A stretch of DNA of 42,920 nt from Coprobacillus sp. (GCA_021203745.1 JAJQAP010000047.1:1-42920); one strand, 5' to 3'. Numbered from the stretch's first letter, positions 1,772-12,847 are shown. A program made the numbers and translations. Notes: generated from the sequence alone by a model not told the origin.

Positions 1772-1856
1772 GCGCGAGTGGCGGAATTGGTAGACGCGTA
1801 CGTTTGAGGGGCGTATGGGAATTCCCGTGTGAGTTCAAGTCTCATCTCGCGCACCA
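1772..1856 (+). tRNA. tRNA-Leu (anticodon GAG), long variable arm, encoded CCA
   Basis: Manual cloverleaf. Acceptor GCGCGAG/CTCGCGC. Anticodon stem TACGT/GCGTA with loop TTGAGGG. T-arm GTGAG-TTCAAGT-CTCAT. 3' ACCA. Confidence 0.85.
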
Positions 1857-1903: not shown

Positions 1904-2527
1904 CTATTTTTTAGTAGCAGAAATTTCTAAGACCTTTTTTGGTTTTTCGTAGCGGTTCATATCCGCTTCCACTACCTGACACTCTCCAATTAACGAGAAG
2001 TAATTTATAGCGTCTTCAATTGTAAAGAAACGTTTATTATATCCATCTACGTAGTAATAATTCTGGTCAAGTTTTACTCCTTGTCCCGCTCCAAAATTTG
2101 TGTCTTTTGTGGAGTTTACCCTAGCAAGTAAATAACCATTTGGGCTAAGGATTCTTCTTATCTCCTTCATAATCTTTTTTGTGGTTTCATCATCAAAATA
2201 ATGAAGAGATAGATCAGCGACAATGACATCAAAAGAACTGTCGTTAAATGGTAAAGGCCCTGAAATGTCTATTAGTTTTGTTTCTGCACTCGAGATATTC
2301 TTTTTAAGAATATCAAGAGCAACCTTAGAGTAGTCACAGGCAATTACTTTAAAACCGCGTTCCACTAAATAAAGAGTGTCATTACCGGTTCCACAACCTA
2401 AATCTAGGACATTCGTGGAGCAGTTATGTAAAATGCACTGATATTTGTCTAACCAGTTGTCATAAGTTATAGATTCATCAGAGTGTTTTTTATGGGTTGT
2501 ATCCCAATAATCAACAAAATCCATCAT
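1904..2527 (-). CDS. Class I SAM-dependent methyltransferase (Methyltransf_11/25-like; no DNA-MTase motif IV)
   Basis: 207-aa ORF. SAM-binding motif I VLDLGCGTGNDT, acidic post-I residue (ACDYS) and motif II/III DVIVADLSLHY...LSPNGYL. Its ATG overlaps the helicase stop (ATGA), with AGGAGG 5 nt upstream. Confidence 0.8.
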   Translation of the reverse strand: MMDFVDYWDTTHKKHSDESITYDNWLDKYQCILHNCSTNVLDLGCGTGNDTLYLVERGFKVIACDYSKVALDILKKNISSAETKLIDISGPLPFNDSSFDVIVADLSLHYFDDETTKKIMKEIRRILSPNGYLLARVNSTKDTNFGAGQGVKLDQNYYYVDGYNKRFFTIEDAINYFSLIGECQVVEADMNRYEKPKKVLEISATKK

Positions 2528-5016
2528 AGACCTCCTAAGTCTTTATAATAATTTTCTAAGAATTTAGTTTCTTTTTCCACTACTTCATTCTTTATCTCAT
2601 CAGATAATTGACTCCACAAGGTTGGATTGAAAGATAAAAGATTCAAATCAGAACTATAATAGACAAATCGTTTTCTTTCAAACTTCTCAAAAGGATTTGA
2701 TAGAATGCTACGTTTCATTTTTATTTTATCATTTAAGTAATCGTAATCAAAGACACACCCTTTACGATCAACAGGTAGATTTCTATCTAGTCTATCGAGA
2801 TAGAAGGAACTATACCTATCGATGAGTGAGTCAATGTTAACTTCACCTTCGGTGTCAGCAAGAGCAAACATGCAGAGCATAAAGTTCAATTTAAATGAAT
2901 AAGTTAATGCATTTTCATCAATAAAATCGAGAAAATCTTGAAGAATTGTCTCATCTGAGTGAACTGGCAAATTTTTAATTGCTCGAATGTTTTCAATATC
3001 GGTTGCAGAGAAATATGGCATATTTTTACTTCCGATTGGAAGATAGAGACTAGATAGTTCTGGGTTTTTCTTTACCCACTTACTGAGCGTCGTTGTTCCT
3101 ATAAATAATTCACGTGCTGCCTGTTCAAGTGATAGGCAATCTTTGTACTTTTCTTCAAATGTAAATACATCGACTTCTTGCATAGAGATTTCGTTTTCAC
3201 TTAAACCGAGAATTGATAGGTAGTCAGTGTTGTTATTTATGACACCCGCAAAATCAGAATAATTCTCAATGTGAAAGAGGGAATTAAAGTTCCAAGGAGA
3301 AAGCTTTCCAACATAGTTGTCCACCACATCGATAACATATAGGCATTCTTTTCCATCATAATTTCTGACTCCTCTTCCGATTTGCTGCAAATACAAAACC
3401 TTAGAAAGAGTTGGTCTTGCCATAACAACGATTTCAGTTTGTGGACTATCCCAACCTTCGCTGATTAATTGACAACTTATGAGAAACTGAACTTTTTTAT
3501 CACGATAGAGTTCCATAATTTTGTCGTTATTTTTATTACCACCATAAACGGCTCTAGCACTTAATCCAGCTTCGTTCATCATCTTCTCGAGTTTTTTGCA
3601 GTGGTTGACGTTTACACAGAAGACAATTCCTTGCTTATAGAAGTCTTTCCTTGGAGCAAAATATTTCTTTATCGTTTGGACAATAAGTTCGTTTCTTGAA
3701 TCCACAATGAGGGTCTTTTCTAGATCACCATAGTTGTAATCCTTGCCGTTGTAACGGACATTACTTAAATCAATGTTACTGAGTAGTCTATAACATCGAA
3801 TATTTGATATAACACCTTTTTCTATTGCTTCTTCAAAGGATAGTTTTGATTCATATTGCCCAAATATTTCTTCGAGTTTCTGATTATCTAATCGTTCTGG
3901 CGTGGCCGTTAACCCGATTAAATATTTTGGAGTAAAATACTGTAAGGTCTTTTTGCAGTTTGCCGCTTGAGCATGATGTGCTTCATCAAAAACAATGTAA
4001 TCATAATGATCTTTTTCAATTTTGTTGCGTTCTAGAAAAACCCTATTATAGAATTTGACTTCAATATTGAGTTTATTAGATAAAACAGATGTTCTTTTTT
4101 CCCAGTCTTCCTTTATTGGAATTGATGGAACCATAATAAGCACATTTTTAACTGCACCGATTTTTTGCAGACTTTTTAGATCTTCAAGAACAATTTGAGA
4201 CTTGCCACTACCCATTGGGCAAACTATCAACGAAGTATTAATTCCTTCAATTCTTGCCTCATTTATATCTTCCAAGATTTGTTCCTGGTGTTCATAGAGT
4301 TTGAACTTCCTTTCTTCTTTAAACACTGCAGAATTTATAAACTCATCTGAACTGCCGAGATATTTCTTAATGTTATCGATGATTTGATCTTTGAAAGCCA
4401 TATTGGAAGTTGAAAAACGGAAGACTTTAAAGTCATATAGAACTAGTGTATTTTGTTTTTCTAACTGCCTTTCATATTTTTCCTCACCGATAATCTGAGG
4501 GTGATGATAGGAAACTCCGTTTTCTTCGATGGCATAATTACCATTTTTTGTTTCTATAACATAATCGACAAAGGCATTTTTTCCATTTTCAAGTGAAATG
4601 GAATATTCCTTCTTTAAATACTGAAGAGCATCCTCTCCATAGGCATCCATAAAAAGTTCTTCAAATGATTGTTCTAGAGGCGTGTTATCAGTGTGAACAA
4701 CATCAAAAATGCCACCATCATCATCAATCTCTATTTCATCAGCGGATTTATATAACCATTCATTAATTTTTTCAATCGTTTCATGGCCCCTATAGTTGAA
4801 ACGAAGGACTTTTTTATAAATTGCCATGTAGCGGTTCTGCATTTCGCAGTATTTTGAATAGTCAAAAAGAATATTGTCATAGTTTTTGCAAATATCATCA
4901 TCGACAATCAAACATATATCGCCACTAACAAAAACAAATGAAGAGTGTTTCTCATCATAAAAATACTGTTCAATGAGAGTAAATCCTAAGTCTTCAATTT
5001 GCTTTCTATTAATCAT
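2524..5016 (-). CDS. Endonuclease-SF2 helicase (ResIII/DEAH type)-HTH fusion protein with unassigned C-terminal domain
   Basis: 830-aa ORF. Residues about 148-205 (VDYVIETKNGNYAIEENGVSYHH...LYDFKVFRFS) resemble the Vsr/DUF559-type PD-(D/E)xK endonuclease core. Helicase motifs are Walker A CPMGSGKS (266-273), DEAH (344-347), TATP (370-373) and QQIGRGVR (544-551). An HTH-like segment LSLEQAARELFIGTTTLSKWVKK lies at 628-650. The last ~145 aa carry no motif I recognise. Confidence 0.85.
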   Translation of the reverse strand: MINRKQIEDLGFTLIEQYFYDEKHSSFVFVSGDICLIVDDDICKNYDNILFDYSKYCEMQNRYMAIYKKVLRFNYRGHETIEKINEWLYKSADEIEIDDDGGIFDVVHTDNTPLEQSFEELFMDAYGEDALQYLKKEYSISLENGKNAFVDYVIETKNGNYAIEENGVSYHHPQIIGEEKYERQLEKQNTLVLYDFKVFRFSTSNMAFKDQIIDNIKKYLGSSDEFINSAVFKEERKFKLYEHQEQILEDINEARIEGINTSLIVCPMGSGKSQIVLEDLKSLQKIGAVKNVLIMVPSIPIKEDWEKRTSVLSNKLNIEVKFYNRVFLERNKIEKDHYDYIVFDEAHHAQAANCKKTLQYFTPKYLIGLTATPERLDNQKLEEIFGQYESKLSFEEAIEKGVISNIRCYRLLSNIDLSNVRYNGKDYNYGDLEKTLIVDSRNELIVQTIKKYFAPRKDFYKQGIVFCVNVNHCKKLEKMMNEAGLSARAVYGGNKNNDKIMELYRDKKVQFLISCQLISEGWDSPQTEIVVMARPTLSKVLYLQQIGRGVRNYDGKECLYVIDVVDNYVGKLSPWNFNSLFHIENYSDFAGVINNNTDYLSILGLSENEISMQEVDVFTFEEKYKDCLSLEQAARELFIGTTTLSKWVKKNPELSSLYLPIGSKNMPYFSATDIENIRAIKNLPVHSDETILQDFLDFIDENALTYSFKLNFMLCMFALADTEGEVNIDSLIDRYSSFYLDRLDRNLPVDRKGCVFDYDYLNDKIKMKRSILSNPFEKFERKRFVYYSSDLNLLSFNPTLWSQLSDEIKNEVVEKETKFLENYYKDLGGL

Positions 5017-5330
5017 TAATCGTTTACATATTCGAGGAATATTTTATCTTTAAATGCTCCTCTTTCTTCTTCTTTCTGTTTTCTTTTTGCGTCAAAAGAG
5101 TCATACGTATAACCTTTTTGTGTCGCGATAGCCCTTAATACTTCTTCTAGATCAATGAGTTCTTCTACATTATCGTCTTTTAGAAATTCCTCAAGTTCTT
5201 CTTTAAATTTGGTCTTTAGGGCGTCGTAATATTCGTTATCGTCTAAGGCTCTTGTAACACAAGTTTTGCCATCATCACTTTCGATGATAGTCGGAATTAA
5301 ATCGCGTACTAATTTGTTATAAACTGTCAT
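5016..5330 (-). CDS. MazG/phosphoribosyl-ATP pyrophosphohydrolase-like NTP pyrophosphohydrolase (small all-alpha)
   Basis: 104-aa ORF. The N-terminus YNKLVRDLIPTII is typical of the PRA-PH/MazG-like house-cleaning family. Acidic metal-binding clusters KEELEEFL and EELIDLEEVL are present. The stop overlaps the helicase ATG (TAATG). Confidence 0.7.
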   Translation of the reverse strand: MTVYNKLVRDLIPTIIESDDGKTCVTRALDDNEYYDALKTKFKEELEEFLKDDNVEELIDLEEVLRAIATQKGYTYDSFDAKRKQKEEERGAFKDKIFLEYVND

Positions 5331-5447
5331 ATTTTTCTCCCATAATATTAAAAATATATCACAAATTTTTTATTCTAATAAAAAAATATAGTCATTTTAT
5401 GAAAATGAGAGTAAGATAATAAAGCGTTAAATGTAAGGAGATAGATT

Positions 5448-5933
5448 ATGCCACAGGCACAAAAAAAGAGTAGAGTAACAAGCGTTACAATCATGATCAT
5501 TTCAATCGTATTACTAATGATTGCATCATTAGCGATGTTTTTCCCAAACATCAAAACTGCCGCAGGTGCATCTCCTTCAGCCGCAGATATATTCTGGCCT
5601 AACTCCAAGAATCAACCAGTTGGGTTTATCGGTATTTGGCCTGTCTTTATCGGATATATGTTTATCTTCCTTTGTGGAGTGGGAACCCTTGTTCTTGCGC
5701 TTCCTGTTATTCATCTATCCTATAAACTTGAAAAGACACTTCTAATTACATTTACTGCACTTGAAGTTGTTGGAGCAATTCTAGTTGCCTTAATCAACGT
5801 CTTCTACTGCTCCATAAATGGTTTTATGGCCCAGCTCATGGATACCACCTTCTATTGGGGAGCGTATCTCGCGGTGTTCTGTACGTTAATTGCCGCGGGC
5901 TTAAATATCTACGCCATCTATCTAGATCGATAA
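5448..5933 (+). CDS. Polytopic membrane protein, unknown function
   Basis: 161-aa ORF with AAGGAG 8 nt upstream of the ATG. It has about 5 hydrophobic helices and no recognisable motif. Confidence 0.5.
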   Translation: MPQAQKKSRVTSVTIMIISIVLLMIASLAMFFPNIKTAAGASPSAADIFWPNSKNQPVGFIGIWPVFIGYMFIFLCGVGTLVLALPVIHLSYKLEKTLLITFTALEVVGAILVALINVFYCSINGFMAQLMDTTFYWGAYLAVFCTLIAAGLNIYAIYLDR

Positions 5934-5949
5934 TTAGTTAAATATAATA

Positions 5950-5980
5950 AAAAGAAAAGAGGCAAATGCCTCTTTTTCTT
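5950..5980. terminator. Bidirectional rho-independent terminator between convergent genes
   Basis: Hairpin AAAGAGGC-aaat-GCCTCTTT (5956-5975), with an A-rich 5' flank and a T-rich 3' flank. Confidence 0.75.
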
Positions 5981-5995
5981 TATCTATAAGTTATT

Positions 5996-7702
5996 TTATA
6001 ACTTAGATTCTAAGTCTCCAAGAATCTTTTTAAGTGGTCTTATAGCTTTTGCAACATTTCCTTCTTCAAAAGGATTTCTTAGATGATTCTTTTTAAGGGT
6101 TTCGACAAATGGGCTACGGCCACCATACTTACAGAGTTTAATGTATTTATTAATGGCTTTCTCTGGATTCTTTTGAGACAAGTCTAAGAACTCAAAGGCC
6201 ACCACTTGAGCAAGGGTATAATCGATATAGTAGAATGGGGACTGGAAGATATGAGCTTGACGGAGCCACCAACCACCTTTTTCTAGTTCTGGAGCTTCAC
6301 TGAAGTCGAGATGTGGTTGATACTTATGTTCTAGCTCTCTAAATTTAGCACATCTCTGTTCGTGCGTGGCATCGACATTTTCATAGACCCAGTGCTGGAA
6401 CTCATCCACAGTTACTCCATATGGTAAGAAGGTAATTGCCCCTTTAAGATGAGAGTACTTATATTTTGTGGTGTCTTCTTTAAAGAAGTCTTCCATATAT
6501 GGCCATGTAAGGAATTCCATACTCATAGAATGGATTTCACATGTTTCCATTGTGGCCTCTCGATACTCTGGTACTTTGATCTTTCTTGCACAGTAGAATT
6601 GGAAAGCATGTCCAATTTCATGGGTTAATGTTTCAACATCGTTTAAGGTTCCATTATTATTAGCAAAGACAAATGGTGCTTTATATCTTGGGAAGGATGT
6701 ACAGAATCCACCACTCATCTTTCCAGGTTTGGCGTCAAGATCTAGAAGATGATGATTAACCATATAATGGAAGAAGTCTCCAATTTCAGGAGAGAGTTTA
6801 TCATACATATTACAGGCAATCTGAACTTGCTCTTGGGTACCCATCTTTGGGGTGGGATTACCATCGAGGAAGTCGAGGTTATAATCGTAGTATTGAGGAT
6901 TCTTCACTCCAATTCGTTTGATTTGACTCTTATATAGCTTTTGGGTATAAGGGACAACCGCTTCATAAATCTGGTCTCGATATCCTTTGACCTTTTCTGG
7001 GTCGTAGTCCATTCTACCCATTCTGTCATAACCTAGTTCAACATAGTTTTTATAACCGAGTTTTTTGGCCATTCTGTCTCTTACATGGACGAGCTGGTCA
7101 TAGATATCACCAAATTCCGCATCATGGTCTTCAAAGAATTTTGCAGTGGCAAGAGATGCCGCTCTTCTTGTTTCTCTATCCGCAGAATTGGTATATTTAT
7201 TCATCTGAGGGAGATTTAATACCTCACCATTAAATTCAATTTGCGCGGACGCGATTAAGGCGGAGTACTGACTAACAAGTTCATTTTCTTTTGTGGCTTC
7301 TTCAATAACATCTGGAGAGAAGGTCTTTAGGGCTAACTCCCATTGTTTAACGGCATACTCTCCATAGATCTTTTTAAGATCATCGATATATGGAGCGTGC
7401 ACAAGTATCTCCATAAATTGAGTGGATACAGCGTTCAACGCTGGGGCAATCTGATTGACCTGGTCTTCGAGTTTCTTATATTTAGGATCGGTGGTGTCAA
7501 GTTGGAAATGGACTTCAATTAGTCCAAAATCTGTGGATATATCATCGGTGTATTTATTCATCTTGTTAATGACTTTAACCGCGCTTTTTGCATCGTTGCA
7601 CGCTTTTAACTCTTCAATAAGAGAGATGAGTTTTGCTTGAATCTTTTTTTCATTTAAGGGGTGAATTTTAAATTCTTCAAAGGTTAGTTCTGTTTCTTTC
7701 AT
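5996..7702 (-). CDS. pepF: M3-family oligoendopeptidase F
   Basis: 568-aa ORF with the zinc motif HEIGHAF followed by a downstream E (ETCEIHSMSMEF). Length and overall pattern fit the PepF/M3B family. Confidence 0.85.
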   Translation of the reverse strand: MKETELTFEEFKIHPLNEKKIQAKLISLIEELKACNDAKSAVKVINKMNKYTDDISTDFGLIEVHFQLDTTDPKYKKLEDQVNQIAPALNAVSTQFMEILVHAPYIDDLKKIYGEYAVKQWELALKTFSPDVIEEATKENELVSQYSALIASAQIEFNGEVLNLPQMNKYTNSADRETRRAASLATAKFFEDHDAEFGDIYDQLVHVRDRMAKKLGYKNYVELGYDRMGRMDYDPEKVKGYRDQIYEAVVPYTQKLYKSQIKRIGVKNPQYYDYNLDFLDGNPTPKMGTQEQVQIACNMYDKLSPEIGDFFHYMVNHHLLDLDAKPGKMSGGFCTSFPRYKAPFVFANNNGTLNDVETLTHEIGHAFQFYCARKIKVPEYREATMETCEIHSMSMEFLTWPYMEDFFKEDTTKYKYSHLKGAITFLPYGVTVDEFQHWVYENVDATHEQRCAKFRELEHKYQPHLDFSEAPELEKGGWWLRQAHIFQSPFYYIDYTLAQVVAFEFLDLSQKNPEKAINKYIKLCKYGGRSPFVETLKKNHLRNPFEEGNVAKAIRPLKKILGDLESKL

Positions 7703-10714: not shown

Positions 10715-10790
10715 GGATGCTTAGCTCAGTTGGGAGAGCATCGCCTTTACACGGCGGAGGTCGTGGGTTCGAGTCCCTCAGCATCCACCA
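10715..10790 (+). tRNA. tRNA-Val (anticodon TAC)
   Basis: Manual fold. Acceptor GGATGCT/AGCATCC. D-arm GCTC-AGTTGGGA-GAGC. Anticodon stem TCGCC/GGCGG with loop TTTACAC. T-loop TTCGAGT. CCA encoded. There is one T50-T64 mismatch in the T-stem. Confidence 0.8.
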
Positions 10791-10815
10791 TTAAAAATAA
10801 AACCCTTATCATTTT

Positions 10816-10899
10816 GGAGGGGTAGCGAAGTGGCTAAACGCGGCTGACTGTAAATCAGCTCCTTCGGGTACGGCGGTTCGAATCCACCCCCCTCCACCA
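10816..10899 (+). tRNA. tRNA-Tyr (anticodon GTA), long variable arm
   Basis: Acceptor GGAGGGG/CCCCTCC and anticodon loop CTGTAAA. The 5' half is the same as the Bacillus tRNA-Tyr as I remember it. CCA encoded. There is one C51-A63 mismatch in the T-stem. Confidence 0.88.
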
Positions 10900-10902
10900 C
10901 TT

Positions 10903-10978
10903 TGGGGTATAGCCAAGAGGTAAGGCAACAGACTTTGACTCTGTCATTCCGGTGGTTCGAATCCACCTACCCCAGCCA
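10903..10978 (+). tRNA. tRNA-Gln (anticodon TTG)
   Basis: Acceptor TGGGGTA/TACCCCA (U1-A72, as is typical of bacterial tRNA-Gln). Anticodon stem ACAGA/TCTGT with loop CTTTGAC. T-arm GGTGG-TTCGAAT-CCACC. GCCA 3' end. Confidence 0.85.
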
Positions 10979-10991
10979 AAATAAAATCTGT

Positions 10992-11067
10992 CTCCCGTTA
11001 GCTCAGTCGGTAGAGCACTTGACTTTTAATCAAGGGGTCAGAAGTTCGAACCTTCTACGGGAGACCA
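10992..11067 (+). tRNA. tRNA-Lys (anticodon TTT)
   Basis: D-arm GCTC-AGTCGGTA-GAGC. Anticodon stem CTTGA/TCAAG with loop CTTTTAA. T-arm AGAAG-TTCGAAC-CTTCT. Acceptor CTCCCGT/ACGGGAG, an unusual C1:G72. ACCA 3' end. Confidence 0.8.
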
Positions 11068-11070
11068 CTT

Positions 11071-11158
11071 GCTCGAGTGGCGAAATAGGTAGACGCAACA
11101 GACTTAAAATCTGTCGGTTGAGTAGACCGTACCGGTTCAAGTCCGGTCTCGAGCACCA
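11071..11158 (+). tRNA. tRNA-Leu (anticodon TAA), long variable arm
   Basis: Acceptor GCTCGAG/CTCGAGC. Anticodon stem ACAGA/TCTGT with loop CTTAAAA. T-arm ACCGG-TTCAAGT-CCGGT. ACCA 3' end. Confidence 0.88.
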
Positions 11159-11163
11159 CCACT

Positions 11164-11188
11164 AAATCACGCAATACGTGATTTTTTT
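11164..11188 (+). terminator. Rho-independent terminator of the tRNA operon
   Basis: Hairpin AAATCACG-caata-CGTGATTT followed by a T-run (to 11188). Confidence 0.7.
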
Positions 11189-11241
11189 GTTAAATTCGAT
11201 GTCCTTTATTGAGATCTTATAAAATTTGCAGTGTTTTTAAT

Positions 11242-11274
11242 AAAAAAGTAGTCCGAACTAGGGACTATTTTTAT
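11242..11274. terminator. Bidirectional hairpin terminator downstream of minus-strand tRNA-Ser
   Basis: TAGTCC-gaactag-GGACTA (about 11248-11267), flanked by AAAAAA on one side and TTTTT on the other. Confidence 0.55.
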
Positions 11275-11277
11275 TGC

Positions 11278-11368
11278 TGGCGGAGTAAGAGGGACTCGAA
11301 CCCTCGCGCCAGTTGCCCGACCTACCTCCTTAGCAGGGAGGCCCCTTCACCAACTTGGGTATTACTCC
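11278..11368 (-). tRNA. tRNA-Ser (anticodon GCT), long variable arm
   Basis: The reverse complement folds with acceptor GGAGTAA/TTACTCC. Anticodon stem CCTCC/GGAGG with loop CTGCTAA. T-arm GAGGG-TTCGAGT-CCCTC. GCCA 3' end. Confidence 0.88.
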
Positions 11369-11375
11369 ACTTGTT

Positions 11376-11404
11376 AGTGTAGCAAAATCGAGGCAATATT
11401 TCAA
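11376..11404 (-). promoter_or_regulatory. Candidate sigma-70 promoter for tRNA-Ser(GCT)
   Basis: On the minus strand: TTGAAA (11404-11399), a 17-nt spacer, then TACACT (11381-11376). It lies 7 nt upstream of the tRNA 5' end and immediately after the proS stop. Confidence 0.45.
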
Positions 11405-11407
11405 TAA

Positions 11408-12847
11408 TTAGTATGCTTTTGCAAAAAGCACAACTTTGTCTGCCTTTTTACCACAGACGACGCATTTATCATCGCATGGAATTTGATTAAAAGGTAATAC
11501 TCTTGCGGTGGCGCTTGTCACTTCTTTAATCTTTGCTTCACAGTCTGGGTCACCACACCACATCGCTTTGGCATATCCCTTATTGTTATCCATTACCTCT
11601 TTAAGCTCATCAAATGTATGGACTTCATAGGTATGACTAACTTGGAAATCGAGGGCTTTTTTATACATTTCATCGTGTATTTGTTTTAGGAGTTTAGTTA
11701 AATCATCGACAAGGGTATCTCTCGATAGTGTTAGTTTTACTCCATCATTACGTTTCACCGCGGTAACGACATTATGTTCGATATCTCTTGGACCAATTTC
11801 GATTCTGACAGGCACTCCCTTCATCTCATACTCAGCGAATTTCCATCCAGCAGTGTGATCTGAATCATCGAGTTTAACTTTGAAGTCTGCCCTCTTTAAC
11901 TGCTCTTCAATCTTTTTTGCTTCATTAAGCACTCCTTCTTTATTTTGGGCAACAGGAATAATTACTACTTGGATAGGAGCGACGTAAGGAGGTAAAACAA
12001 GACCATTATCATCTCCATGCATCATAATAATAGAACCTAGTAGTCTTGTGGATACACCCCAGGATGTTTGATGAGGGTTATAGATTTTACCATCTCTTCC
12101 TTGATAAGAAATATCAAAGGCTTTAGCAAAACCTGTGCCAAAATAATGAGTGGTACCACATTGCAGGGCTTTTCCATCAGGATTTAATGATTCTAGGGAA
12201 TATGTTTCAAGAGCACCCGCAAACTTCTCTTTATCGGTTTTAATACCTTTACTAAAGGGGATAGCAAGTAAATCTCTTCCAAGATCATCGTATATATCAA
12301 GAATTGATAAGGCTTCGTGTCTAGCTTCTTGCTCAGTTTCATGAAGTGTATGTCCTTCTTGCCAAAGGAATTCACTACCTCTTAAAAAGGGTCTAGTGGT
12401 TTTCTCCCATCTTACTACTGAACACCACTGATTATATAAAAGAGGTAAGTCTCGATAGGACTTTAATATTTTCGCGTAGTGTTCACAGAATAGGGTTTCA
12501 CTCGTTGGACGGATGATGAGTCGATCATCGATCTTTTCTCCTCCGCCTTCTGAGGCAATAAGGGTTTCAGGGGCAAAACCTTCCACATGTTCTTTCTCTT
12601 TATTGAACAAAGACTCTGGAATCACCATTGGCATATAGACGTTTTGGTGACCAGTTTCTTTAAAACGTTTATCAAGATAGGCTTGTATATTCTCCCAGAT
12701 GGCGTATCCATAAGGACGATAAATAATAAAACCTTTCGTACTGGAGTAGTCCATAAGTTCCGCTTTCTTACAGACATCAGTGTACCACTGAGCAAAATCG
12801 TCTTCTTGACGAGTTATAGAGTCGTTTTTAATTTGGTTATCTGTCAT
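11408..12847 (-). CDS. proS: Prolyl-tRNA synthetase, archaeal/eukaryote-like type (no INS editing domain, C-terminal Zn-binding domain ending in Tyr)
   Basis: 479-aa ORF with class II motifs (FRPYGYAIWE-like, RPTSET, motif 3 region GTTHYFG). The C-terminal cysteine cluster CGDPDCE...CVVCGK and the terminal ...FAKAY are typical of this ProRS subtype. Confidence 0.92.
   Translation of the reverse strand: MTDNQIKNDSITRQEDDFAQWYTDVCKKAELMDYSSTKGFIIYRPYGYAIWENIQAYLDKRFKETGHQNVYMPMVIPESLFNKEKEHVEGFAPETLIASEGGGEKIDDRLIIRPTSETLFCEHYAKILKSYRDLPLLYNQWCSVVRWEKTTRPFLRGSEFLWQEGHTLHETEQEARHEALSILDIYDDLGRDLLAIPFSKGIKTDKEKFAGALETYSLESLNPDGKALQCGTTHYFGTGFAKAFDISYQGRDGKIYNPHQTSWGVSTRLLGSIIMMHGDDNGLVLPPYVAPIQVVIIPVAQNKEGVLNEAKKIEEQLKRADFKVKLDDSDHTAGWKFAEYEMKGVPVRIEIGPRDIEHNVVTAVKRNDGVKLTLSRDTLVDDLTKLLKQIHDEMYKKALDFQVSHTYEVHTFDELKEVMDNNKGYAKAMWCGDPDCEAKIKEVTSATARVLPFNQIPCDDKCVVCGKKADKVVLFAKAY

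Follow-up and report, generated by a model that had tools for sequence, protein, structure and literature searches.

Three overlapping genes in Coprobacillus sp.

The DNA considered here, which we refer to as the window, is a single stretch of 42,920 nucleotides (nt) from Coprobacillus sp. (GCA_021203745.1 JAJQAP010000047.1:1-42920), and our interest lies in a cassette of three minus-strand genes located at positions 1904-5330. An earlier note on this DNA had proposed that the three genes encode a MazG-like enzyme, an endonuclease-helicase and a methyltransferase, and that they are translated together as parts of a candidate defence or nucleotide-surveillance system. The listing of open reading frames (ORFs) confirms all three genes at the positions given in that note. 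Read along the minus strand, they are an ORF of 104 amino acids (aa) related to MazG and to phosphoribosyl-ATP pyrophosphohydrolase (PRA-PH) at 5016-5330, an ORF of 830 aa at 2524-5016 that encodes a nuclease-helicase and is the predicted effector, and an ORF of 207 aa at 1904-2527 that encodes a predicted class I S-adenosylmethionine (SAM) methyltransferase.

The genes are joined by start/stop overlaps, both of which were read from the sequence as previously described. The MazG-like gene and the helicase gene share a TAATG at 5014-5018 (minus strand), in which the stop codon TAA (5018-5016) runs into the start codon ATG (5016-5014). At the helicase/methyltransferase junction (2522-2536, minus strand), an AGGAGG (2536-2531) is followed by the spacer TCT and by ATGATG, and the ATGA at 2527-2524 arises from the overlap of the methyltransferase start (ATG, 2527-2525) with the helicase stop (TGA, 2526-2524). 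The AGGAGG lies 3 nt before the first ATG, and not 5 nt as the earlier note had it, which is a minor correction; a second, in-frame ATG (2524-2522) follows it at a distance of 6 nt. We consider that the overlaps are not due to chance, since the same close, same-strand arrangement of helicase and methyltransferase genes recurs in every one of the 38 loci, described below, that carry a methyltransferase. The overlaps, together with this tight linkage among relatives, uphold the idea that the genes form one unit.

The loci that we compared number 49, and comprise the window and 48 loci from genome, metagenome, and GenBank records in which the helicase is 37-74% identical to that of the window. 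Of the 49, 38 have a methyltransferase gene of the same broad family beside the helicase gene; in every case the two share a strand and overlap or are at most 23 nt apart, with the methyltransferase gene either downstream or upstream (38/38). The pairing is retained from 100% down to 41% helicase identity, and it involves two divergent methyltransferase subfamilies, one found in the window's clade and the other with more distant helicases, including the 41%-identical copy. The 11 loci lacking a methyltransferase are mostly truncated contigs. A MazG-like gene, by comparison, is present in only 10 of the 49 loci, where it accompanies both methyltransferase subfamilies and occurs in two gene orders. 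Because the methyltransferase is found in 38 of the loci and the MazG-like gene in 10, the conserved unit is the helicase-methyltransferase pair, and the MazG-like gene is a recurrent accessory. The trio, which the earlier note had taken as the unit, is therefore not what is conserved, and the interpretation given in that note is upheld in part.

The family is common in gut Bacillota, and extends to Fusobacteriaceae, to metagenome-assembled genomes of Thermodesulfobacteriota/Deltaproteobacteria, and to the gammaproteobacterium Colwellia, whose genome contains the same helicase-methyltransferase pairing. The helicase of the Colwellia locus (Colwellia sp. MSW7, L050:5522-9248) is split into three ORFs.

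Predicted domains of the three proteins

The 830-aa protein, for which more than 120 full-length homologue clusters with identities of 61-93% were found, is centred on a superfamily 2 (SF2) ATPase/translocase core at aa 237-570 (3307-4308, minus strand). The presence of a ResIII/DEAH-type SF2 motor, as proposed in the earlier note, is borne out by Pfam matches to ResIII (6e-25, aa 237-375) and Helicase_C (2e-12, aa 450-551); apart from this motor, there was no above-threshold Pfam match in the protein. The Walker A motif GSGK272S and the D344-E345-A-H motif are invariant, or nearly so, across the family alignment, and the same is true of E164-E165 within AIEENG in the N-terminal region, so that all of the residues singled out beforehand are in place. 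Judged by sequence similarity, the closest characterised relatives of the motor are the double-stranded DNA translocases of restriction enzymes. The motor matched SauUSI (PDB 7clg; phmmer, 1e-30, aa 332-605), the PADLOC model mREase_IV (4.3e-36, aa 331-568, motor part only), the NCBIfam model of the EcoAI-type Type I R subunit (9e-27, with a score of 93.8 bits against a cut-off of 550), and a Type I R fragment (PDB 3h1t; 4e-18). Phage replicative helicases also resemble the motor, at 24-30% identity.

The region upstream of the motor was modelled with AlphaFold2 (AF2). The model of aa 1-236 has a mean predicted local distance difference test score (pLDDT) of 83 and a predicted template modelling score (pTM) of 0.83, and comprises two parts. 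The first is a beta-rich subdomain at aa 1-95 (4732-5016, minus strand; pLDDT 84-97 over aa 1-90), which carries a FDYSKYCEMQN motif that is conserved in the family alignment, and for which Foldseek returned no informative fold match. The second, at aa 110-232 (4321-4689, minus strand), is a nuclease-like domain that we assign to the PD-(D/E)xK type of fold, and hence regard as a putative nuclease, on the basis of the AF2 fold, weak Foldseek matches, and sub-threshold Pfam matches. The model contains an alpha-beta-beta-beta-alpha-beta unit at aa 113-220, and residues E119, D151, E164, N166, G167, H171, Q188, N189, and R200 of the domain are invariant down to 37% identity. The Foldseek matches are weak (E>=0.04) and mostly to PD-(D/E)xK nucleases, namely the R2 RLE domain, bunyavirus cap-snatching endonucleases, Bax1, AF1548, Can2, and MGME1. 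At the sequence level, PF18741 (REase_MTES_1575), which we take to be a restriction-endonuclease-fold family related to Vsr and DUF559, gave matches to 11 of 19 diverse N-terminal domains (best 3.4e-4; 0.018 over aa 146-207 for the window protein), all of them below the family cut-off of 38.2 bits. A search of PDB sequences with the N-terminal profile gave no match. The "Vsr/DUF559-like core" of the earlier note is thus reasonable at the level of the superfamily, given the MTES_1575 matches and the fold, but not as membership of a family, as an hhalign comparison of the N-terminal domain with E. coli Vsr was negative.

Downstream of the motor, the earlier note had placed a helix-turn-helix (HTH) and an unassigned C-terminal domain. 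Both are visible in the AF2 model of aa 589-830 (pLDDT 85), as an HTH with a wing that is followed by a winged-helix module belonging to no Pfam family. The HTH, at aa 617-683 (2968-3168, minus strand), is of the MerR/RacA/BldC-like kind in the AF2 model and in Foldseek, where it matched RacA (5i44) with a probability of 1.0 over 57 columns, yet with an E value of 0.15; its Pfam match to MerR_1 was 0.061. The winged-helix-like module, at aa 691-827 (2536-2946, minus strand; pLDDT >90), contains an invariant NPFEKFERKRF motif and shows a weak likeness (Foldseek, E>=0.09) to the winged-helix domains of ScpB/MukE/JetB, MarR, TubR, and Cdc6. No SRA, DUF3427, or PUA-type reader was found in the 830-aa protein, either by Pfam or by Foldseek on the AF2 model.

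The C-terminal region also occurs in other arrangements. In proteobacterial and Thermodesulfobacteriota relatives (the Colwellia locus L050 and the proteins P0175, P0177, and P0179), an S24 (LexA/UmuD-like) peptidase domain follows the HTH/winged-helix module, an arrangement that may point to regulation through DNA damage or RecA. P0160 and P0162, which come from independent contigs, have an RF3-like GTPase N-terminus joined to the C-terminal module, and in P0154, a partial gene at the end of a contig, the N-terminus joined to it is methyltransferase-like. We have not used these three fusions as strong evidence, since they may be deletion products, partial genes, or assembly chimeras.

By its Pfam matches, the 207-aa protein is a class I SAM-dependent methyltransferase (Methyltransf_25, 8.9e-21; Methyltransf_11, 2.5e-20; both above the cut-offs), and the SAM-binding motif I, LDLGCGTG, is conserved among the partner methyltransferases. 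Its neighbours in the PDB are small-molecule or peptide methyltransferases, and those in NCBIfam and the PDB include TehB, UbiE-like enzymes, BioC, and CypM, with NCBIfam scores far below the curated cut-offs. The PADLOC mad2 model matched at 1e-22 over profile positions 261-398 of 492, which correspond to the generic class I fold region. As the earlier note had claimed, the protein is not recognisable from its motifs as a DNA methylase: the PC and ENV motifs are absent from the window methyltransferase, and the (D/N/S)PP(Y/F/W) motif IV is found in none of the 38 partner methyltransferases.

The 104-aa protein, when searched alone or in a shallow alignment, gave nothing significant in Pfam, the PDB, or PHROGs, and a tblastn search of phage records was likewise empty. 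A profile search of 1.84 billion representatives, however, recovered 9,722 clusters of the family at E<=0.001, most of which are stand-alone proteins of ~105 aa. Among 62 diverse relatives, E44, E45, E48, E57, and D60 are invariant and form EExxE and EExxD acidic motifs, and the family has a conserved N-terminal NKLVRDxIP motif. When the 62 relatives were compared with Pfam, 17 matched PF12643 MazG-like (best 9e-6), 15 matched PF01503 PRA-PH, six matched MazG, and six dUTPase_2. The best PDB profile matches of the family are weak (the PRA-PH part of HisIE, 7bgm, E 0.12; the nucleotide pyrophosphohydrolase 5ie9, E 0.62), one relative is named phosphoribosyl-ATP pyrophosphohydrolase by NCBI, and hhalign against canonical MazG aligned the EELADL motif only. 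Taken through these relatives, the MazG/PRA-PH assignment made in the earlier note appears to hold by transitivity, at the level of the superfamily.

Genomic context of the cassette

Outside the cassette almost nothing is conserved across the loci, and the flanks differ from one locus to the next. The neighbours of the relatives include Wadjet JetABCD, GmrSD, and Type I M and S subunits, as well as a NACHT-pentapeptide protein, AAA_13, AAA_15, and NERD and SLFN helicases. Integrases, a serine recombinase, MobL, and PcfJ are the mobility genes found near relatives. A trio 74% identical to that of the window is located within an element with an integrase and MobL, its neighbours being either a reverse transcriptase or a WYL regulator together with the BREX protein BrxA. 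Other copies, like that of the window, adjoin housekeeping genes. The full-length helicase family is absent from PLSDB plasmids, and phage records and IMG/VR are nearly devoid of it, the occurrences being one unverified faecal contig and one disrupted copy. The earlier note had raised the possibility of a conserved core locus; what was found is that the relatives lie in variable, defence-rich, and mobile contexts, as one would expect if this were a small, mobile defence cassette of cellular genomes.

In the window itself, a tRNA-Leu(gag) gene (1772-1856, plus strand) lies beyond the end of the methyltransferase gene. Between that gene's stop codon and the tRNA is a GC-containing hairpin with A and T runs at its flanks (1865-1882), which is likely to serve as a terminator for both the methyltransferase gene and tRNA-Leu. 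At 0.337, the GC content of the cassette is slightly lower than that of the window (0.364) and of the next 6 kb (0.388). At 10715-11368, ~5 kb from the cassette, six tRNA genes form a cluster (plus strand: Val, Tyr, Gln, Lys, and Leu; minus strand: Ser), and outside this cluster the window has three scattered tRNA genes.

Several individual loci have features of their own. In one (L019:3562-5895), a CRISPR (clustered regularly interspaced short palindromic repeats) array lies directly upstream of a helicase homologue without a methyltransferase; it has a 36-nt repeat, GTTTGAGAGCCCTGTAGATTTTAATGATTCTCAAAC, and ~33 units of 66 nt. In one clade (L040-L043 and L047, at ~4890-5735, minus strand), a divergently oriented gene for Nmad3 (nucleotide modification associated domain 3; PF18754, 6e-60) stands beside the pair. 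An SLFN-g3/DUF2075 helicase recurs by the pair (L029:148-2185, L031:11318-14457, and L005:11143-14710), and in L029 and L031 it is accompanied by a canonical MazG-like protein (PF12643, 1e-18); L031 also has an ATP-binding cassette (ABC) ATPase bearing DUF3427. MazG and a Schlafen-like helicase may therefore constitute a separate module, and we rejected the canonical MazG of L029 as an independent link between MazG and the pair, given that the same gene is partnered with the SLFN/DUF2075 helicase in L031. Downstream of the pair in L003 (9085-14496), an ORF resembling a tyrosine recombinase is accompanied by proteins of 578 and 288 aa. Judged by eye, these may be a PAPS-reductase/DndC-like enzyme with Fe-S cysteines and a DUF4007-like protein (compare Ssp/Dnd phosphorothioation). 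Lastly, among GenBank records labelled as "phage", a full-length homologue occurs in L009 alone (MT836124.1, "Bacteriophage sp.", unverified), which encodes a GmrSD-like DUF262 protein, a methyltransferase, a helicase, an S8 peptidase-like ORF, and transporter genes (5537-7315 and 10962-12461); it looks like a bacterial defence island, and is probably not a phage genome.

Interpretation and comparison with known systems

With slightly better than even confidence, we read the cassette as a candidate mobile, restriction-like defence-island module that has a core of two co-translated genes and would act against phages or plasmids. The 830-aa protein would be a single-chain, ATP-driven restriction-type enzyme, in which a nuclease, an SF2 translocase, and a recognition module follow one another in this order, as in SauUSI or Type ISP enzymes. 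We envisage that the target DNA would be chosen by the MerR-like HTH and the winged-helix module, that the motor would travel on double-stranded DNA, and that cleavage would fall to the N-terminal Vsr/MTES_1575-like PD-(D/E)xK domain. The methyltransferase, which has the look of an obligate partner, would most likely control or license the nuclease through a SAM-dependent methylation other than conventional DNA base methylation; it might methylate the enzyme, the backbone, or a nucleotide, or else serve as a SAM sensor. The 104-aa MazG-like protein is a lineage-specific add-on that probably hydrolyses a deoxynucleoside or nucleoside triphosphate ((d)NTP) species. In a bolder version, which we think unlikely, the translocating nuclease would have its self/non-self or on/off switch in the small, non-DNA-type class I methyltransferase, which would use a chemistry new to immunity, and the MazG-like enzyme would tune the same nucleotide pool. 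Such a switch might methylate the enzyme, the DNA backbone, or a nucleotide or second messenger, or it might sense SAM and in this way detect phage enzymes that degrade it.

Several observations weigh against the restriction-like reading. In addition to having no motif IV in any of 38 cases, the partner methyltransferases are ~200 aa in length, mostly acidic, and devoid of a target recognition domain (TRD) or any other additional domain. At L016-L019 and L028 the helicase gene is intact, yet no methyltransferase lies in the 0.7-6 kb of downstream sequence. The fold matches of the nuclease and recognition domains are all above E 0.03, and to these may be added the negative hhalign result with Vsr. 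The HTH/winged-helix module is acidic (pI 4.4-4.8), and the nearest folds of the winged-helix part include the protein-binding KITE proteins ScpB, MukE, and JetB; the module may bind a protein partner rather than DNA. As to mobility, the window copy stands among housekeeping genes; an integrase was not seen there, nor do att-like direct repeats derived from the tRNA-Leu end flank the cassette.

The features of the methyltransferase, together with the helicase copies that have none, lead us to disfavour a classical self-protecting modification, and the self-protective role that the earlier note had considered for this enzyme is accordingly weakened. The same helicases, whose catalytic residues are intact, would suit a stand-alone, Type IV-like, modification-dependent enzyme, in which the winged helix senses modified foreign DNA and the methyltransferase and MazG-like protein are auxiliaries that act, for example, on the non-canonical nucleotides of hypermodified phages. 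Such an enzyme would be in keeping with a motor that is most similar to that of the Type IV enzyme SauUSI, with a methyltransferase devoid of DNA-methylase features, and with the frequent occurrence of GmrSD and other Type IV genes among the neighbours, and winged-helix domains are known to read methylated DNA in DpnI and Mrr. However, a methyltransferase that is coupled in 38 of 49 loci, and in both orders, is unusual for Type IV, the 830-aa protein has no SRA, DUF3427, or PUA-type reader, and its recognition module is acidic. It is the very tight linkage of the methyltransferase that makes us disfavour a pure Type IV reading, to which we assign only a small chance of being correct. That linkage, as tight translational coupling and co-inheritance, is in turn what speaks for a restriction-modification pair of a new type, in which the methyltransferase docks on the C-terminal module and marks self DNA in an unconventional manner, and the nuclease-helicase destroys DNA that is unmarked. 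The domain order is like that of Type ISP enzymes, whose single chain includes the methyltransferase (PMC7913695); in P0154 the C-terminal module is preceded by a methyltransferase-like N-terminus; and the partial mad2 match (1e-22, positions 261-398 of 492) may point in the same direction. We nevertheless judge such a pair to be quite unlikely: P0154 is a partial protein from the end of a contig, perhaps the result of a deletion; motif IV of N6-adenine and N4-cytosine methylases is missing in 38 of 38 cases, as are the PC/ENV motifs of 5-methylcytosine (5mC) methylases from the window copy; the methyltransferases are acidic and without a TRD; and some helicase copies have no methyltransferase at all.

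The pair might also have no immune function, being a helicase-nuclease of a mobile element or of DNA repair that, with a small-molecule or RNA methyltransferase, is passively carried in variable regions. Copies within integrative elements with MobL, PcfJ, and integrases, the likeness of the motor to phage replicative helicases (24-30% identity), the housekeeping genes that flank the window copy, and the resemblance of the methyltransferase to TehB/UbiE-type enzymes are all compatible with this. Yet plasmids have no copy of the full-length family and the phage and viral collections hardly any, defence genes dominate the neighbours with no single conserved pathway among them, and the nuclease-like residues are invariant, and we therefore regard a non-immune role as very unlikely.

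If functional, the restriction-like module that we favour would be an unnamed system that is common in gut Bacillota, and, being a tractable case with just two genes, it would lend itself to the question of what keeps a nuclease-helicase in check when no canonical DNA methylase is present. The module might also supply a new means of DNA recognition, and it could be a previously unrecognised obstacle to gene transfer in gut bacteria or to phage therapy. Its interest rests mainly on the unexplained methyltransferase partner, and the switch described above, if true, would amount to a new logic for restriction-type defence.

The earlier note had asked whether the trio might already be a named system. 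The PADLOC search, which returned 19 model matches, gave no system that fits beyond the generic motor and fold, and in the literature that we searched neither the pair nor the trio was named. The systems with which the cassette can be compared resemble it in part. One is Hhe, which is a large SF1 helicase and is said to have been presented as a single-gene defence by Gao et al. in 2020; REase_MTES_1575 is presumably its nuclease family. Hhe combines a helicase with a Vsr-type nuclease domain and is a validated defence gene, whose nuclease mutant is inactive (10.1101/2022.06.16.496414), and it serves as a precedent for the effector proposed here. The 830-aa protein has its helicase fused to a putative nuclease domain, with MTES_1575 matches in 11 of 19 members that are all sub-threshold, but the helicase here is of the SF2 ResIII type, there was no Hhe model among the PADLOC matches, and Hhe has no methyltransferase or MazG partner. 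The likeness to MADS consists of the match of the methyltransferase to part of the mad2 model; MADS (methylation-associated defence system), however, is an eight-gene system, the other mad genes are not in the three-gene cassette, and the helicase matches no mad model. The 104-aa protein, for its part, shares with the all-alpha NTP pyrophosphohydrolases of the MazG/PRA-PH group its EExxE and EExxD motifs and the model matches of its relatives, but its family forms a separate, uncurated branch.

The closest parallels are found among restriction enzymes. SauUSI, which has the order nuclease-ATPase-coupler-TRD and translocates on DNA (PMC7913695), is likewise a single chain with a nuclease, an SF2 DExH translocase, a linker, and a C-terminal recognition domain, and its motor is homologous to that of the 830-aa protein. 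However, the nuclease of SauUSI is of the phospholipase D (PLD) type with an HxK motif, whereas that of the 830-aa protein is PD-(D/E)xK-like and has no PLD match in Pfam, and SauUSI reads 5mC and 5-hydroxymethylcytosine through an SRA/DUF3427 domain, where the 830-aa protein has an HTH and a winged helix (PMC7913695). SauUSI also lacks a partner methyltransferase. The Type ISP and Type I enzymes (LlaGI/LlaBIII, EcoAI-type HsdR) have in common with the cassette an N-terminal nuclease domain of the PD-(D/E)xK type (a putative one in the 830-aa protein), a related double-stranded DNA translocase, and a methyltransferase in the system, which in Type ISP enzymes is part of the same chain (PMC7913695). 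They differ in that their N6-adenine methylases carry NPPY motifs and work with TRDs or HsdS, whereas the cassette encodes a separate class I enzyme of ~200 aa with neither; there is no HsdS or HsdM in the cassette, and its scores are far below the family cut-offs. The cassette is a new architectural variant among restriction-like nuclease-helicase systems: alongside a SauUSI-like motor it has a putative nuclease of another kind, a winged-helix module that would be new as a recognition module, and a methyltransferase partner that is unconventional.

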